Origin: Shigella phage ESh26
Sequence record: ON528736
Reading direction: 5' to 3' (one strand)
Length of the DNA stretch: 64,000 nt
Each line of letters begins with the position of its first letter. Position 1 is the first letter of the stretch. Below, one piece after another: positions 2,154-57,980 of the stretch. The position numbers were made by a program, and so were the translations under genes. The notes below the pieces were generated by a model. That model made no database searches and was not told where the DNA came from. It saw only the letters and a list, made by a program, of their open reading frames with translations.

Positions 2154-5100
2154 ATGGCCGAGATTAAAAGAAAGTTCAGAGCAGAAGATGGTCTGGACGC
2201 AGGTGGCGATAAAATAATCAACGTAGCTTTAGCTGATCGTGCCGTAGGAACTGACGGTGTTAACGTTGATTACCTAATTCAAGAAAATACAGTTCAACAA
2301 TACGATCCAACTCGTGGATATTTAAAAGATTTTGTAATCATTTATGATAACCGCTTTTGGGCTGCTATAAATGATATTCCAAAACCGGCAGGAGCTTTTA
2401 ATAGCGGACGCTGGAGAGCATTACGTACCGATGCTAACTGGATTACAGTCTCATCTGGTTCATATCAATTAAAATCTGGTGAAGCTATTTCGGTTAACAC
2501 TGCAGCTGGTAATGATATTACATTTACTTTACCATCTACTCCAATTGATGGTGATACTATCGTTCTCCAAGATATTGGAGGAAAACCTGGAGTTAACCAA
2601 GTTTTAATTGTAGCTCCAGTGCAAAGTATTGTAAACTTCAGAGGCGAGCAAGTACGTTCAGTACTAATGACTCATCCAAAGTCACAGTTAGTTTTAATTT
2701 TTAGTAATCGTCTGTGGCAAATGTATGTAGCTGATTATAGTAGAGAAGCTGTAGTTGTAACACCAGCGAATACTTATCAAGCGCAATCTAATGATTTTAT
2801 CGTACGTAGATTTACTTCTGCTGCACCGATAAATATTAAACTTCCGAGATTTGCTAATCACGGCGATATTATTAATTTCGTCGATTTGGATAAATTAAAC
2901 CCTCTTTATCATACAATTGTTACGACATATGATGAAACGACATCAGTACAAGAAGATGGAACTCATTCCATTGAAGGCCGTACATCGATTGACGGTTTCT
3001 TGATGTTTGATGATAATGAGAAATTATGGAGATTGTTTGACGGGGACAGTAAAGCACGTTTACGTATCATAACGACTAATTCAAATATTCGTCCAAACGA
3101 AGAAGTTATGGTATTTGGTGCAAATAACGGAACAACTCAAACGATTGAGCTTCAGCTTCCAACTAATATTTCTGTTGGTGATACTGTTAAAATTTCCATG
3201 AATTACATGAGAAAAGGACAAACGGTTAAAATCAAAGCTGCCGGTGAAGATAAAATTGCTTCTTCAGTTCAATTGCTGCAATTCCCAAAACGTTCAGAAT
3301 ATCCACCTGAAGCTGAATGGGTGACTGTCCAAGAATTAGTTTTTAATGGCGAAACTAATTATGTTCCAGTTTTACAACTTGCTTATATAGAAGATTCTGA
3401 TGGAAAATACTGGGTTGTACAACAAAACGTTCCAACCGTAGAAAGAGTTGATTCTTTAAACGATTCTACTAGAGCAAGATTAGGCGTGATTGCTTTAGCT
3501 ACACAAGCGCAAGCTAATGTCGATTTAGAAAATTCTCCACAAAAAGAATTAGCAATTACTCCAGAAACATTAGCTAACCGTACTGCTACAGAAACTCGTA
3601 GAGGTATCGCGAGAATAGCAACTACTGCTCAAGTGAATCAGAACACCACATTCTCTTTTGCTGATGATATTATCATCACTCCTAAAAAGCTGAATGAAAG
3701 AACTGCTACAGAAACTCGTAGAGGTGTTGCTGAAATTGCTACGCAACAGGAAACTAATGCAGGTACTGATGATACTACAATCATCACTCCTAAAAAGCTT
3801 CAAGCTCGACAAGGTTCTGAATCATTATCTGGTATTGTAACCTTTGTATCTACCGCAGGAGCTACTCCAGCTTCTAGTCGTGAATTAAATGGTACAAACG
3901 TTTATAATAAAAACACTAATAATTTAGTTGTTTCGCCTAAAGCACTGGATCAGTATAAAGCTACTCCAACGCAACAAGGTGCAGTAATTTTAGCAGTTGA
4001 AAGTGAAGTAATTGCTGGACAGAGTCAAGAAGGATGGGCAAATGCGGTTGTAACGCCAGAAACGTTACATAAAAAGACATCAACTGATGGAAGAATTGGT
4101 TTAATTGAAATTGCTACGCAAAGTGAAGTTAATACAGGAACTGATTATACTCGTGCAGTCACTCCTAAAACTTTAAATGACCGTAAAGCAACTGAAAGTT
4201 TAAGTGGTATAGCTGAAATTGCTACACAAGTTGAATTCGACGCAGGCGTCGACGATACTCGTATCTCTACACCATTAAAAATTAAAACTAGATTTGATAG
4301 TACTGATCGTACTTCTGTTGTTGCTCTATCTGGATTAGTTGAATCAGGAACTCTCTGGGACCATTATACCCTTAATATTCTTGAAGCAAATGAGACACAG
4401 CGTGGTACACTTCGTGTAGCTACACAGGTTGAAGCTGCTGCAGGAACATTAGATAATGTTTTAATAACTCCTAAAAAGCTTTTAGGTACTAAATCTACCG
4501 AATCGCAGGAAGGTGTTATTAAAGTTGCAACTCAGTCTGAAACTGTAACTGGAGCGTCAGCAAATACTGCTGTATCTCCAAAAAATTTAAAATGGATTGT
4601 ACAGAGTGAACCTACTTGGGCAGCTACTACTGCGATAAGAGGCTTTGTTAAAACTTCATCTGGTTCAATTACATTCGTTGGTAATGATACAGCTGGTTCT
4701 ACGCAGGACTTAGAGCTATACGAGAAAAATAGCTATGCAGTATCACCATATGAATTAAACCGTGTATTAGCAAATTATTTGCCATTAAAAGCAAAAGCTG
4801 CTGATACAAATTTATTGGATGGTCTAGATTCATCTCAGTTCATTCGTAGGGATATTGCACAGACGGTTAATGGTTCACTAACCTTAACCCAACAAACGAA
4901 TCTGAGTGCCCCTCTTGTATCATCTAGTACTGCTACGTTTGGCGGATCAGTTTCGGCAAACAGCACATTAACTATTTCTAATACTGGAACGGCAACTCGT
5001 CTGATTTTTGAGAAAGGACCTCAAACTGGAACTAACCCAGTACAGACGATGACTATCAGAGTTTGGGGAAATCAGTTTGGTGGCGGTTCAGATACAACAC

Positions 5101-37582: not shown

Positions 37583-37782
37583 TTTGAATGCTCTACAATT
37601 AATTTTAAGGCTTCTTCATGCACACACTTACCTAATGGTATATGTCCAGTTTTAATTGTGTAAGCTTTGTGGAGCTGATTAGATAAGAGCTCGTATGTGA
37701 GCTCCTTGTCATAATTTTTAAATAGCTGGTCAATACGTTTCTTGTGGGCTTTCTTAAGCTGACGTTTATTTAAACGAGCCAT
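37579..37782 (-). CDS. Hypothetical basic protein (67 aa)
   Basis: ORF. Confidence 0.4.
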   Translation of the reverse strand: MARLNKRQLKKAHKKRIDQLFKNYDKELTYELLSNQLHKAYTIKTGHIPLGKCVHEEALKLIVEHSK

Positions 37783-38300
37783 TAATAACCTCGGTCTTGA
37801 CGAGCGAAGTTTTCAGCATTTTTCAGATAATAAAGTTTAAAGATTTCTTCAGCCGTAAGACCGAGACCTTGGAACATGTTCAGAACGAAATGAAGAATAT
37901 CAATCATTTCGAATTTAATTTCCAACTGGTCTTGTGGAGACAAATCAGTAATTAAAGTTTCACGACGTTCACCATGCTGTGACTTCCAAGGTTTCCATAC
38001 AGCAGATGCATCTTTTTCGCCATTGCTCATACCACCAAGAGAAGTCAGAAGTTCGCGGAATTCATCATCAATATAATCTTTCTGATTACGCAGCCAATCA
38101 ACAACTTCGCCTGCAGTAGCCAAATCATCAGGATGACGGTTATATTCAGGTTTATCTTTAGCTAAACGAACCTGCAGAGATTTCTGCATATCAAGCATAA
38201 CTTGCAGCGGGTCTTTTTCATCACCGAGAATATCCCAGTATTCATTTTGAGCTTTATCAGCGCCTTCAATCAGTTGTGAACATTCGTTAAAGTATGCCAT
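37782..38300 (-). CDS. 56: dCTPase/dUTPase gp56 (MazG-like NTP pyrophosphohydrolase)
   Basis: Track ORF 37782..38393 begins upstream at a non-ATG codon; ATG at 38300 (MAYFNECSQLIEGADKAQNEYWDILGDEKDPLQVMLDMQ...) gives 172 aa, similar to T4 gp56. Confidence 0.88.
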   Translation of the reverse strand: MAYFNECSQLIEGADKAQNEYWDILGDEKDPLQVMLDMQKSLQVRLAKDKPEYNRHPDDLATAGEVVDWLRNQKDYIDDEFRELLTSLGGMSNGEKDASAVWKPWKSQHGERRETLITDLSPQDQLEIKFEMIDILHFVLNMFQGLGLTAEEIFKLYYLKNAENFARQDRGY

Positions 38301-38334
38301 TATTTTTCCTTTCAATTCATGGGTTAGTAGATTA

Positions 38335-38359
38335 ATTATACAATAAATATATAAAGCAA
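38335..38359 (-). promoter_or_regulatory. MotA-dependent middle promoter for gene 56
   Basis: Minus strand TTGCTTTA (MotA box) - 11 nt - TATAAT about 35 nt upstream of gene 56 ATG. Confidence 0.6.
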
Positions 38360-38371
38360 TAAGGAGGACAT

Positions 38372-38572
38372 ATGGTACAAAAATTAATGGCACTTGTTAA
38401 TGCCATAAAAGGTAATAAAAAACGTATAGCTTTTACTATTTCTGCTATGGTAGGAATTTTACTCTGGAATTTTGTTTTATCACCAATTGCTATTGCTCAT
38501 GGTGTTAATATTCCAGTAATTACTCTTGATACATTCGTAGATTTAGCATTTGCTTTGGTTGGGTTAATTTAA
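38372..38572 (+). CDS. Plus-strand small two-TM membrane protein (66 aa)
   Basis: ATG preceded by AAGGAGG with 4-nt spacing; MVQKLMALVNAIKGNKKRIAFTISAMVGILLWNFVLSPIAIAHGVNIPVITLDTFVDLAFALVGLI; stop overlaps gene 61 stop on the opposite strand. Confidence 0.45.
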   Translation: MVQKLMALVNAIKGNKKRIAFTISAMVGILLWNFVLSPIAIAHGVNIPVITLDTFVDLAFALVGLI

Positions 38573-42682: not shown

Positions 42683-43045
42683 TTAAAAGAATTTAAATTT
42701 TTTCTTTGACCTTTTATTAAATGCATCTTGTAGTTGCATTGTAATACATTTTTCTACATGAGGAGCTAACTCAGCTTTTCTTTCTTGGTCAAGAACAGCA
42801 AAGTCCATTACGACTTTTCCATCAACCCAATCTAATTTTGTCACATACACAATGTGTGTAGAACCGTCTTCTAGTTTAATGACAATCTCCTGGATAACAT
42901 TTTCCATGGCAGATTTAATTATCTTAAGAGATTCATTAAAAAGACGTTCTTTTCTTTCTTCTTCCCCCTCCGAAGAGGGGGATTCATCGATAATTTCTAG
43001 ATCTAAATCTAAATCATCTTTATTCATTAAATTCTTCCATATCAC
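42683..43045 (-). CDS. 40: gp40 head-assembly protein
   Basis: 120-aa ORF between uvsX and 41 as in T4; call by synteny and size. Confidence 0.6.
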   Translation of the reverse strand: MIWKNLMNKDDLDLDLEIIDESPSSEGEEERKERLFNESLKIIKSAMENVIQEIVIKLEDGSTHIVYVTKLDWVDGKVVMDFAVLDQERKAELAPHVEKCITMQLQDAFNKRSKKKFKFF

Positions 43046-44201
43046 TTAACTGATCTAGGTCAGTTTCTAAATCAGCTGCTGATTTACTTTTACTTTCTGG
43101 AGATTTAAATTTTTCAACCTTTGAGTTAATCAATTCATCAACTTCAGCTTCAACAATTTCATTACTATCAATAGCACCTAACTGATAAGCACGTTTAATA
43201 GCATCTCGGAATGGCTGATGCTTAAATAAAGGACCCCAGAATGTAGTGCAGTTGGTATCTTTTGCACGCCAAGATTTTTCTTCGCGAATCATCTCACCGG
43301 TTTCTTCGTCAAGAAATTCACGAGCATACCAGCCATTTTTAGGTTTTACCACAAATCCTAATTCTAGAGCCATATCTAACAATCCAGAATAAGGATCGAT
43401 GCCACCGTCAAATTTAACATCAATAAAGAATTTACTTTTTTCTTTAACGGTACGAGATTTTTCTACATTTAGAACAAATTGATACCCCTGAAGATCAGAA
43501 CCATCTTTAATCTGGCGCTTACCGATAATGAATACGGTATCAGCCGAATACATTACGCCTGTACCACCTGTCATCACGGTTTTACTAAACATTTCAATTG
43601 TTTCAATTGTATGGTTAACCGCAACGCATGGAATGTTTTTAATACTAAAATAAGGAGTAACAATACGGAATAATGACTTCAGTGATTTAGCACGAGTCAT
43701 ATCTGCTACAGATTTTTCATTCAAGGCATCTTCCGTTTCTTTCTTAGAAGCCATATTACCGATTGAGTCGATGAATACAATAACTTTTTCACCGCGCTCA
43801 ATAGCTTCAAGCTGATTCACCATATCAATTTTCAGCTGTTCAACTGACTGAATTGGTGTATGAATTACTCGTTCCGGGTCAACTCCCATGGATCGCAAAT
43901 AAGCTGGAGTAATACCAAATTCGCTATCATAAAATAGACAAACCGCGTCAGGATATTTGTTCAAATACGCCGCAACCATAGTCAAAGACATATTTGATTT
44001 AAAGTGTTTAGAAGGACCTGCAAAAATGGTTAAACCAGACTGCATACCACCATCAATCGCACCAGAAATAGCGATATTAAGCATTGGGATTTTTGTACGG
44101 ATTACATCCTTTTCATTAAAGAATTTAGATGCAGTCAGTTCAGCAGTCATTTTAGAAGTGGAAGCTTTAATCAAACGGGATTTTAAATCTGCAATAGACA
44201 T
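43020..44201 (-). CDS. uvsX: UvsX recombinase (RecA-like)
   Basis: 393-aa ORF MSIADLKSRLIKASTSKMTAELTASKFFNEKD...; RecA-fold ATPase motifs; close to but not identical with remembered T4 UvsX. Confidence 0.92.
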   Translation of the reverse strand: MSIADLKSRLIKASTSKMTAELTASKFFNEKDVIRTKIPMLNIAISGAIDGGMQSGLTIFAGPSKHFKSNMSLTMVAAYLNKYPDAVCLFYDSEFGITPAYLRSMGVDPERVIHTPIQSVEQLKIDMVNQLEAIERGEKVIVFIDSIGNMASKKETEDALNEKSVADMTRAKSLKSLFRIVTPYFSIKNIPCVAVNHTIETIEMFSKTVMTGGTGVMYSADTVFIIGKRQIKDGSDLQGYQFVLNVEKSRTVKEKSKFFIDVKFDGGIDPYSGLLDMALELGFVVKPKNGWYAREFLDEETGEMIREEKSWRAKDTNCTTFWGPLFKHQPFRDAIKRAYQLGAIDSNEIVEAEVDELINSKVEKFKSPESKSKSAADLETDLDQLSDMEEFNE

Positions 44202-44278
44202 TCATTTTTTCCATAGGCATCATTATATTTTCCTCACTGGTTAAAGATAGAGTAATTATAACACAATAAATTTAGGCA

Positions 44279-45127
44279 TTAATCGACTGCTATTGGATGA
44301 ATAGCATTAAACTTATGAAACGCTTCTGATTTTTCTTTGCGTGAAACACACATGCGAAGAACCTTTAATGGCTCGTCTTCTTCACCCAACGATTTTCTCT
44401 TTTCGATATTCGATGTTTTCCAACGAGCTTGCTCTGGAAACTCTCTATTGATTTGCTCAAGAGCTCTATTATGTTTTGAATTACTACGAATTGAACTACA
44501 TCCGCCAGGAGCTTGTGCTTTTCCAGATACAACCAGATATTTGAACAAGGCCAAATGCGGATAACCTTGATTAATTAAATTGAGAAATGCATACATATCT
44601 TCGCATAAATCAATTTTTCCATACCCAATTTGTTCTGTCGTGAGTTTTCCAAGGTCATACCATGTATTCGTGAATCCATATGAATTTTCACGATAATTAC
44701 CCCAAGATGAAGTAATTTTAAAAATTGGTAGACGAGCATGGCCATGATAATACCCACAATCCATGGCATCTTCAACGTATTGAATCAATTCATAGAACTG
44801 TTCACGAGTTAATTGATTAATTTTATCTACACAGCGACGATCATCTTTCTTTCGCATTGAACTCATACGAATAGTAGTATCATCGTCAATCATCCAGATT
44901 CGTTGACCTGCATACATATCAGTAATTGCTTTACGAGTACCAGCAATTCCATTAACATCATCAGGAATAGTTATAATTTTGGCTTTAGACCCGTAAGCGT
45001 CATAATAAGCTTTTTCTTCGTGTTCACGTACTACAATATGAGGTTCATAATCAGTCGGAAACATATCAAGGGCAGAAACTGCCCCTACGCGTTGATAGCT
45101 TGGAATTACGAATTGAATCATTTCCAC
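44279..45127 (-). CDS. Glycosyltransferase (282 aa) at the beta-gt locus; candidate beta-glucosyl-HMC alpha-glucosyltransferase
   Basis: ORF with DDD motif (RIWMIDDDTTI); occupies the uvsX-42 interval where T4 has 351-aa beta-gt; no resemblance to remembered T4 beta-gt. Confidence 0.55.
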   Translation of the reverse strand: MEMIQFVIPSYQRVGAVSALDMFPTDYEPHIVVREHEEKAYYDAYGSKAKIITIPDDVNGIAGTRKAITDMYAGQRIWMIDDDTTIRMSSMRKKDDRRCVDKINQLTREQFYELIQYVEDAMDCGYYHGHARLPIFKITSSWGNYRENSYGFTNTWYDLGKLTTEQIGYGKIDLCEDMYAFLNLINQGYPHLALFKYLVVSGKAQAPGGCSSIRSNSKHNRALEQINREFPEQARWKTSNIEKRKSLGEEDEPLKVLRMCVSRKEKSEAFHKFNAIHPIAVD

Positions 45128-45858
45128 TCACCATTATAATCTTTTTTCACAATATGAGTTTCGCCAGTATTCCACCAATGATCAACCAAGTAAAAATGAC
45201 GAGAATATACATGAAGACTTCCAACATTCCATATAATAGAACCTGCTTTATACTGACGAGTTGAATCACCTGCATTCAAATCAGATACTAATTTATCTAG
45301 TACGTATTTTTGCCATGCATAATCATTACGGAATCCGAAGACAACGTCATTTGAACGCATGCTCACTACTGCATTGACTTTCTTATCACGAATCAGGTAC
45401 TGTACTGTATTCGTACACATGAAATCTGACATACCATCTTTATTGTAGTCAAACTGCATGGATGGACGAGTATAAATCATGATACCGCGTCGAGAATCAG
45501 GATTTTGACCAAGTTCAGCTAAACACATATCATATTGGGCATAGTTATCTTCTGACCAGATGGCCCAACCATAATTCGAATTAATTTCGCCTTTAGAAGA
45601 TGCTACCTGTTGCCAAATCTTCGGTGTTTCACCTGGAATATCTTTAACAAACAAACTTTTAGATTTATACCATTCAAGTTCACGCTGAATGTATTCATCA
45701 TTAAGAGCGCCAAAAATAAATGGTTCATCTGCTACAAATGATGCGCCAATAATTTCAATAGTTTTAACGCCAGTTTTATCAACTACGAAATCTTTTTCCT
45801 TTAATGCAAGCCCCAAATGAAGACGGATTTCTTCAACTGTCATAGAGTCACTAATCAT
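45118..45858 (-). CDS. 42: dCMP hydroxymethylase gp42
   Basis: 246-aa ORF; thymidylate-synthase-like fold; size as T4 gp42. Confidence 0.92.
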   Translation of the reverse strand: MISDSMTVEEIRLHLGLALKEKDFVVDKTGVKTIEIIGASFVADEPFIFGALNDEYIQRELEWYKSKSLFVKDIPGETPKIWQQVASSKGEINSNYGWAIWSEDNYAQYDMCLAELGQNPDSRRGIMIYTRPSMQFDYNKDGMSDFMCTNTVQYLIRDKKVNAVVSMRSNDVVFGFRNDYAWQKYVLDKLVSDLNAGDSTRQYKAGSIIWNVGSLHVYSRHFYLVDHWWNTGETHIVKKDYNGEWK

Positions 45859-45865
45859 TTAAACC

Positions 45866-46015
45866 TCAATTGATACATTCATATTTAACTTGTAACAGTA
45901 ATAAACCCCAACCTATAATAAGTGTCGGAATCATACAAGGAACCGTTACGCTATAGTATATACTTATTATAATCATCAAGATTAAAAGCAATACTGCTAA
46001 AATTTTGCTTTTCAT
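45866..46015 (-). CDS. Small hydrophobic membrane protein (49 aa)
   Basis: Hand-translated MKSKILAVLLLILMIIISIYYSVTVPCMIPTLIIGWGLLLLQVKYECIN; ATG overlaps imm stop (ATGA). Confidence 0.35.
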   Translation of the reverse strand: MKSKILAVLLLILMIIISIYYSVTVPCMIPTLIIGWGLLLLQVKYECIN

Positions 46016-46263
46016 TCCTTCTCTCTGATGATAATTACTTGATTCGGTTGTGCAGATTTTTTAGTTTCACCCGCAATTGACCAAATAAATGTAATAAACC
46101 AACCAATAATTGACCAATTAAACAGTAAAGATGTGAAAAAGATTCCTACTGTCGATTTTGACCCACGCATCAAGGCGATGAACCACGGAAGCATGTATAT
46201 AATGATAGCCAACACGCCTGAAACTAAAACCATAAAAATTGAACCTGCTACTAAAGTTTCCAT
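46012..46263 (-). CDS. imm: Imm superinfection immunity protein
   Basis: 83-aa two-TM ORF METLVAGSIFMVLVSGVLAIIIYMLPWFIALMRGSK... recognised as T4 Imm. Confidence 0.88.
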   Translation of the reverse strand: METLVAGSIFMVLVSGVLAIIIYMLPWFIALMRGSKSTVGIFFTSLLFNWSIIGWFITFIWSIAGETKKSAQPNQVIIIREKE

Positions 46264-46270
46264 GTTTTCC

Positions 46271-46651
46271 TCACTTAGTCAAATTTTTTACACATGAATT
46301 ATAAGAATTCACTACATACTCCATCGGAGCATTTTTACCGGTACGCCATTGGTAATTATTAGCCCAATTAGCCCAAAGTTCGGCGCAGTAGTTTTCAATT
46401 TTTTCTTCGCGTGTAATTACATCTGAATTACGATATGCTTGAGCAGATTCATCTGGACGAATAGCTTCGTCAAAATTCGCCTGCATTTGTTCTACTGTCT
46501 GTTTTGGAGCTTCTTTATAACACTTGACGTTAGGATTATAAAATTTGCTTGAACAGTTTACAATTTTTCCTACATCAGATTGATTTACTACCGGTCCTTG
46601 AGCTACACAGCCAGTAAGACCCAATGTAATAACCAAAATAGCAATTTTCAT
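46271..46651 (-). CDS. Putative lipoprotein (126 aa)
   Basis: Signal peptide with lipobox MKIAILVITLGLTGC. Confidence 0.55.
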   Translation of the reverse strand: MKIAILVITLGLTGCVAQGPVVNQSDVGKIVNCSSKFYNPNVKCYKEAPKQTVEQMQANFDEAIRPDESAQAYRNSDVITREEKIENYCAELWANWANNYQWRTGKNAPMEYVVNSYNSCVKNLTK

Positions 46652-56761: not shown

Positions 56762-56779
56762 AAAGGGCCGAAGCCCTTT
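56762..56779 (-). promoter_or_regulatory. UUCG-tetraloop hairpin overlapping a-gt stop
   Basis: Minus-strand RNA AAAGGGC-UUCG-GCCCUUU. Confidence 0.6.
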
Positions 56780-57980
56780 ATTTTGTAATAATGTCAAACT
56801 GTTCTTTAAAGCAGAAGCTTGAATCTTGATGCTGATACAAAAATTCATAAGCTTTTTCGCGTTCACGGTCATAAAGAGCTCGGTCAGATGACAGTTCTTT
56901 AATACGCTCAAATGTTGATTCCATGTCATTTTCATCAAACCAAACGATACCGCTATCATGAGAAATTAACGGAGTATTATCAACACGGAATTTTAAATTT
57001 TCGCCAGTAGATTTCCAAAATACCGGAATTGTTCCGCACGCACCAAGCTCGAGATGAGTATATTCTAAAGAACGTTGTAGATATTTTTTGTCCAACTTAC
57101 TCAACTGATAACCAAATCCGGATTTACTCATGCGTTCAAGCATTTCGCTATTTACATAACGGTCGAGAATTTGCGTTGGCAAATTAGGAGCAATTTTAAT
57201 TTGGTCTACTTGATGAAGACGATAATACTCGTATGGAATTCCTTTTTCTTTAATAGGAATGAACGCTGGAGAACGTTCCAGACCTTCCATAATAGTACTT
57301 AGTCCAGCAGGTTTAAGATGTTTTTCGTGAAAATCAAACATCTGATAAAAGCCTTTCCATGTAGTCGTACGACCAATCCAACGGTTGACATTCATGTTAA
57401 TTTCAGAAACATCTTTCCAGTATGTTGATCGAACTTTCGCAATATCCATAGGAGGCTGAAAGTTGTATACGGTCGGTGCTTCTTCAATATCATCAAACAG
57501 AGAAACTGTTTCTGGATACCATTCTTTCATCAGAACTTTATTAAAATCACCATTATCAGAATGACTAAAAATAACATCAGCTCGGCGAACAGTTTCTTCT
57601 AATCCCAAATTTCGACGCAAAGAAAGAGAAGAATGGTCATGTTGATAAACTACAACACGAACCGAAGGTTTAATGTTATCAATAATTTTTTTATAGTTAT
57701 TAATAGTGTCTTCTTCGACTGAAGTAGCAGGAACTGAATTGATAATTAGAATATCACAATCATTTACCAGCTTAAGTGTTTTATCGTATTCTTTTGCCAA
57801 TAAAACCGGAATTGAAAATGATTTATAATCATGCGCGCAATTACGTGTAAATGATTTATCTTTAGCATAAACCAAAGTTACTTCATGACCATTTTTAATA
57901 AACCAATCACGCTGCTCAAGAGAAAATTTAGTTACGCCGCAACCTTCAAGACCTCGAGCCATAAAAATGCATACTTTCAT
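56778..57980 (-). CDS. a-gt: DNA alpha-glucosyltransferase
   Basis: 400-aa ORF MKVCIFMARGLEGCGVTKFSLEQRDWFIKNGHEVTL... recognised as T4 AGT. Confidence 0.9.
   Translation of the reverse strand: MKVCIFMARGLEGCGVTKFSLEQRDWFIKNGHEVTLVYAKDKSFTRNCAHDYKSFSIPVLLAKEYDKTLKLVNDCDILIINSVPATSVEEDTINNYKKIIDNIKPSVRVVVYQHDHSSLSLRRNLGLEETVRRADVIFSHSDNGDFNKVLMKEWYPETVSLFDDIEEAPTVYNFQPPMDIAKVRSTYWKDVSEINMNVNRWIGRTTTWKGFYQMFDFHEKHLKPAGLSTIMEGLERSPAFIPIKEKGIPYEYYRLHQVDQIKIAPNLPTQILDRYVNSEMLERMSKSGFGYQLSKLDKKYLQRSLEYTHLELGACGTIPVFWKSTGENLKFRVDNTPLISHDSGIVWFDENDMESTFERIKELSSDRALYDREREKAYEFLYQHQDSSFCFKEQFDIITK

Follow-up and report, generated by a model that had tools for sequence, protein, structure and literature searches.

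Which host defences a T-even phage escapes depends on the sugars carried by its hmC. Gentiobiosyl-hmC withstands the Brig1 glycosylase and the BapA deglucosylase (PMC11078745; bioRxiv 10.64898/2026.02.25.707755) and remains a target of GmrSD-family nucleases, BrxU among them (PMC13390438; PMC13216743), and unglucosylated hmC is exposed to Brig3 and McrBC-type restriction (bioRxiv 10.64898/2026.02.25.707755; PMC13216743). In T4, the locus that adjoins gene 42 consists of segA and b-gt, the latter (PF09198, PDB 1JG7) encoding an inverting, UDP-glucose-dependent DNA glucosyltransferase of GT-B fold that makes a beta linkage on bare hmC. T2 and T6 carry ba-gt (PF20691, PHROG 842) between uvsX and gene 42, a gene for a 280-aa enzyme whose acceptor is alpha-glucosyl-hmC and whose partners are a-gt, gene 42 and gene 56; the gene has the same position in CP and EL. 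When T6 lacks ba-gt, only alpha-glucosyl-hmC is left, the phage is more Brig1-sensitive, and its DNA becomes a substrate of Brig1 and BapA (PMC11078745; bioRxiv 10.64898/2026.02.25.707755).

The products of such gene sets have been measured by HPLC/MS in ten Durham Collection Tequatroviruses that have an alpha-GT and a TAGT and no beta-GT (PMC13390438). All ten contained 5-hmdC, alpha-glucosyl- and alpha-gentiobiosyl-methyl-dC, with no beta-glucosyl form (PMC13390438). EL, BGP and Geo showed roughly 1:2:2 hmC : alpha-glucosyl : gentiobiosyl, and Solly, TB37, QOTSP, NR1, CP, Some and EH2 showed about one third hmC, about two thirds gentiobiosyl and a trace of the mono-glucosyl form (PMC13390438). 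In T2, gentiobiosyl-hmC amounts to about 5% (PMC13390438; bioRxiv 10.64898/2026.02.25.707755), versus about 72% in T6. In a 2026 survey of 753 GT-encoding phage genomes, just 6 combined an alpha-GT with a beta-GT, and the great majority paired one or the other with a TAGT (PMC13216743).

Identity of the gene in the uvsX-42 interval

We analysed a 64-kb stretch of DNA from Shigella phage ESh26 (hereafter the window), in which the gene order 41-40-uvsX-ba-gt-42-imm-43 is T4-like apart from the replacement of segA and b-gt. The gene of interest lies on the minus strand within an open reading frame at 44279..45127. Downstream, a 77-nt spacer separates it from the uvsX recombinase gene (43020..44201, minus strand); upstream is gene 42 (45118..45858, minus strand; Pfam Thymidylat_synt), encoding the dCMP hydroxymethylase that makes hm-dCMP. 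This is the position of ba-gt in T2, T6, CP and EL. The 20 kb around the locus are 96-98% identical to many Tequatrovirus genomes, including REP4, UGKSEcP1/2, Sf24, CP and TB37, the last two having a collinear neighbourhood with 96% DNA identity over that length. The G+C content of the gene (0.35-0.37) and its strand skew equal those of the neighbouring genes, and thus give no sign of recent foreign origin.

Two hundred seventy-five of the 280 residues of the protein are identical to the T2 beta-glucosyl-HMC-alpha-glucosyltransferase (98%), and across T2 and T6 the identity is 97.5-98%. The protein matched the PHROG 842 profile "beta-glucosyl-HMC-alpha-glucosyltransferase" end to end (residues 2-277, E 1.7e-89) and the Pfam family of TET-associated glycosyltransferases (TAGT; PF20691) at profile positions 2-205 of 205, scoring 38.8 bits against a curated gathering cut-off of 27.5 bits. 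These matches, the six substitutions that separate it from T6 and the synteny bear out the earlier note's proposal that the gene fits the T2/T6 system for adding a second glucose. We therefore identify it, with high confidence and with no result speaking against the assignment, as the Tequatrovirus ba-gt (also ggt, beta-alpha-GT or TAGT), which would make gentiobiosyl-hmC in the pathway described below.

We next compared the locus with its T4 counterpart. The earlier note had seen no resemblance to T4 beta-gt and had proposed a BLASTp comparison; against the 98% identity to T2 ba-gt, the 351-aa T4 protein gave only noise (best E=3.4). A tblastn search of the entire 64-kb window with T4 b-gt gave a best match of E=1.1, representing no copy of the gene, and segA had no match anywhere in the window. 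Homology of the frame to T4 beta-gt is thus ruled out, the two genes being syntenic without sequence similarity. A sequence search of the PDB with ba-gt returned no solved relative, its lone match (E=0.76) being irrelevant.

To place the gene among phages, we searched 50,697 phage records by tblastn and obtained matches in 689, which shows that the frame is no chance ORF. Four hundred seventy-two records matched at 90% identity or more, from T-even phages of Escherichia, Shigella, Yersinia and Salmonella, and about 200 at 60-80% came from Klebsiella, Enterobacter and Salmonella S16-like phages, where the gene is usually annotated ba-gt. Unrelated phages carry more distant homologues, whose identity is about 24-30%. 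Two plus-strand ORFs overlapping ba-gt (44337..44564 and 44903..45139) were without support and were treated as chance ORFs.

At the same threshold of at least 90% identity, T4-type b-gt was found in 29 phage records versus 472 for ba-gt. The sugar pattern announced in the earlier note is thus indeed non-T4, but it is not unusual: alpha-GT with TAGT is the norm of the genus and T4 the exception. Gene, function and distribution have all been described before, so that the finding is one of correct annotation, with no new biology. Recognising the alpha-GT and TAGT type is of use in predicting host range and sensitivity to defences, as when therapy phages are chosen. In some Enterobacter and Salmonella T4-like phages (e.g., NC_055739.1, 23578..24651), a homologue of b-gt, with about 50% identity to that of T4, lies directly beside a TAGT homologue, forming a beta-GT and TAGT pairing.

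Start codon, fold and conserved motifs

In the ORF listing of the window, the minus-strand frame begins at a GTG and counts 282 codons before its stop. The coding-strand junction of the gene 42 end and the ba-gt start reads ...AATGGTGAGTGGAAATGATTCAATTC..., and in it an ATG at 45121 overlaps the TGA of gene 42 as ATGA, preceded at Shine-Dalgarno distance by the Shine-Dalgarno-like element GGTGAG. The T2, CP, EL, teqskov, Solly and EH2 records annotate an 843-nt CDS from the same ATG. Because the overlap, the Shine-Dalgarno-like element and the annotations of the homologues all point to this codon, the product is most likely 280 aa long (plus stop), encoded at 44279..45121 on the minus strand as the second DNA glucosyltransferase of the phage. 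We dropped the GTG start, and with it the 282-aa length, on this sequence context and the homologous annotations. The two extra minus-strand codons, GTG GAA (45122..45127), precede the probable ATG and fall within the last part of gene 42; they are probably untranslated as part of ba-gt and an artefact of mechanical ORF calling. The earlier note's 282-aa DxD-type glycosyltransferase between uvsX and gene 42 thus holds for the frame, the locus and the motif (DDD, residues 79-81), and probably not for the length. The ATGA overlap suggests translational coupling of ba-gt to gene 42.

Neither promoter-like nor terminator-like sites were in excess within 43900..46400, with 12 and 1 found against 10.7 and 1.1 expected from shuffled sequence. 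The sole terminator-like match is a 9-bp GC-rich hairpin, TAGGGGCAG TTT CTGCCCTTG, at 45067..45087 on the minus strand in codons 12-18 of ba-gt; it is probably meaningless, the count equalling the chance expectation. Between gene 42 and imm lies a minus-strand ORF for a hydrophobic 49-aa product (45866..46015), annotated as a 150-nt CDS in T2, CP and EL; the T4 and T6 annotations have no counterpart and leave about 150 nt empty at this place.

A word-indexed protein search with ba-gt returned 11 clusters at 99% to 29% identity, and ten sequences formed the shallow alignment on which the structural model is based. Invariant in this alignment were R11 (motif IPSYxR), R32, T62-R63, D121, D175 (motif C-E-D), Y177 and G206-G207-x-S209-x-x-R212. 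The DxD motif, D79-D80-D81 in the 280-aa numbering, was invariant in homologues down to 32% identity. In the window, ba-gt extends over its full length, has no stop or frameshift, and keeps every invariant residue.

The AlphaFold2 model (mean pLDDT 72.7, pTM 0.75) is of moderate confidence, with a core at pLDDT 80-93 and the conserved 196-211 loop, below 50, unresolved. The predicted fold is GT-A (GT2-like) with the DxD motif; the two Rossmann domains of a GT-B fold, also looked for, were not found in the model, setting ba-gt apart from T4 b-gt. This agrees with the published AlphaFold3 analysis of T6 TAGT, whose GT-A fold was placed as sister to GT2 (PMC13216743), and the T2 and T6 enzymes share the same motifs. 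In established T-even biochemistry, UDP-alpha-glucose serves as donor and the linkage formed is beta (PMC13390438; bioRxiv 10.64898/2026.02.25.707755; PMC11078745), so that ba-gt must be inverting, like GT2 enzymes. The enzyme is probably metal-dependent; by analogy with GT2, the DDD would hold the metal and the diphosphate, and D175 of the "ED" motif is a candidate catalytic base. Cellular GT2-family GT-A enzymes (TarP 6h1j, TarS, BcsA) have only 6-15% sequence identity to ba-gt and differ in acceptor, which for ba-gt is a sugar on DNA.

The hmC pathway encoded in the window

The companion genes that the earlier note had named (a-gt, gene 42 and gene 56) were each found intact in the window. 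The DNA alpha-glucosyltransferase gene a-gt (56778..57980, minus strand; 400 aa) matched Pfam AGT with E 5e-236, and T4 alpha-gt aligned to 56781..57980 at 90.75% identity. The gene 42 product is identical to that of T2 and has eight differences from that of T4. Gene 56 (37782..38300, minus strand), encoding a dCTPase/dUTPase of 172 aa from ATG that begins MAYFNEC, matched Pfam dUTPase_2; its place between gene 61 and the soc-side genes is that of T4-like genomes, to judge by the annotation of EL. With these three genes, hmC synthesis, dCTP exclusion and the first-glucose step are all encoded alongside ba-gt.

The orthology, synteny and intactness of ba-gt, its fold class, its conserved motifs and the other pathway genes are direct results of this analysis. 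Donor, acceptor and linkage would be those described in the literature for near-identical enzymes. In the pathway we propose, gp56 and gp42 would ensure that hm-dCTP takes the place of dCTP, with gp56 keeping unmodified dCTP out of phage DNA. Once the DNA has been replicated, the GT-B alpha-glucosyltransferase would add an alpha-linked glucose to most hmC, and the resulting alpha-glucosyl-hmC would be the acceptor that a-gt supplies to ba-gt. The latter would then move a second glucose from UDP-glucose to alpha-glucosyl-hmC in beta-1,6 linkage, to yield alpha-gentiobiosyl-hmC. For lack of a T4-type beta-gt, between a quarter and a third of hmC would be left unglucosylated and no beta-glucosyl-hmC would form. 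The phage should thus make alpha-glucosyl- and gentiobiosyl-hmC, and no beta-glucosyl-hmC. On this pathway the historical name, which the earlier note had used, appears to mislead: a second glucose is added as that note proposed, but the enzyme would place a beta-1,6 glucose on alpha-glucosyl-hmC and would not be an alpha-glucosyltransferase acting on beta-glucosyl-hmC.

The window a-gt is identical to that of Durham phage CP at 398 of 400 residues and has 35-37 differences in 400 from those of T4, T6 and EL. The clustering of these differences at residues 254-276 suggests a recombined segment. The gap between genes 56 and 61 (38301..38568, about 270 nt) holds no dam methyltransferase; in phage EL, dam and a further 560-nt ORF, annotated hypothetical, lie between the two genes. 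This dam-like gene is shared with T4 (PMC13390438).

Expected modification pattern

The fraction of di-glucosylated hmC is unreadable from sequence, since the T2 (5%) and T6 (72%) enzymes differ by few residues; a few substitutions evidently shift the ratio greatly. The ba-gt copies of T2, T6, teqskov, CP, Solly, EH2 and EL were set against that of the window at their variable positions (window residue first). The nearest copies were those of Solly and EH2, with three differences (K46R, K92R, I101V), followed by CP with four (V30A, K46R, K92R, I101V) and teqskov with four (K46R, K92R, I101V, R226I). Solly, EH2 and CP are separate isolates in which the modification itself was measured (PMC13390438). 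T2 had five differences (R11H, K46R, K92R, I101V, P251S), T6 had six (Y40N, K46R, D55G, K92R, I101V, R106H) and a stop in place of Q10, and EL had eight (K46R, I50V, M89I, K92R, R95K, C97R, A202S, Q203H). Relative to T2 and T6 alike, the window thus has K46, K92 and I101; it lacks R11H and P251S of T2, and Y40N, D55G, R106H and the codon 10 stop of T6.

If the gene is active, its quantitative pattern is probably T6-, Solly- or CP-like, with about two thirds gentiobiosyl-hmC, and not T2-like (about 5%), since the nearest measured relatives all belong to the high-gentiobiosyl group. We considered whether ba-gt might instead work at a low, T2-like level, leaving mostly mono-alpha-glucosyl-hmC and a few percent gentiobiosyl-hmC. 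That its product is 98% identical to that of T2, that gp42 is the same in both phages and that T2 makes so little gentiobiosyl-hmC with the same gene all speak for this reading. It is nonetheless unlikely: the T2-specific R11H and P251S, both present in eight of eight T2/SV76 records, are absent from the window, R11 is invariant in all other aligned homologues, and ba-gt is nearest to Solly and EH2, by three conservative changes, and a-gt to CP, all three with about two thirds gentiobiosyl-hmC.

The eight T2/SV76 records are 100% identical across ba-gt (T2, PV648364.1, 3007..3849). Residue 11, encoded in the window at 45089..45091, is Arg in the window, T6, teqskov, CP, Solly, EH2, EL and all more distant aligned homologues. 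Judged from this conservation, R11H is a candidate that could explain the low gentiobiosylation of T2 (about 5%) versus that of T6 (about 72%).

A ba-gt with K46, K92 and I101 acting together with a CP-type alpha-gt might also give an hmC : alpha-glucosyl : gentiobiosyl ratio, or a site distribution, that differs from any measured Tequatrovirus, which we consider improbable. If it did, comparing such alleles with T2 R11H could also explain the divergent di-glucosylation of T2 (5%) and T6 (72%). The alpha-gt allele, tried as a predictor of T2-like versus T6-like di-glucosylation, showed no correlation: T6 and EL share the same T4-type allele with different patterns, and CP has the window-type allele.

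A glycosyltransferase that merely occupies the same locus and uses another acceptor or donor (a non-DNA substrate or another sugar) would be in keeping with the diversity of the TAGT family, some members of which occur without an alpha- or beta-GT (PMC13216743), and with the distant homologues in unrelated phages. The protein is 97-99% identical to enzymes from phages in which gentiobiosyl-hmC has been measured, and it preserves all invariant residues, which makes this very unlikely. Least likely, to the point of being hardly credible, is an inactive remnant in a phage with only alpha-glucosyl-hmC and hmC, since the window copy, for all that disrupted copies such as that of T6 (MH550421.1) exist, is undisrupted over its full length, retains the invariant residues and has a coupled ATGA start with a Shine-Dalgarno-like element.

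The disruption in T6 is an in-frame TAG at codon 10 in GenBank MH550421.1 (gene at 4138..4980), where the other copies have CAA (Gln10), a two-base change; the product annotated there has 261 aa and begins at the internal Met20. Such a stop conflicts with the standing of T6 as the reference gentiobiosyl phage, and is due either to an amber mutation specific to the stock or to a fault in the sequence.
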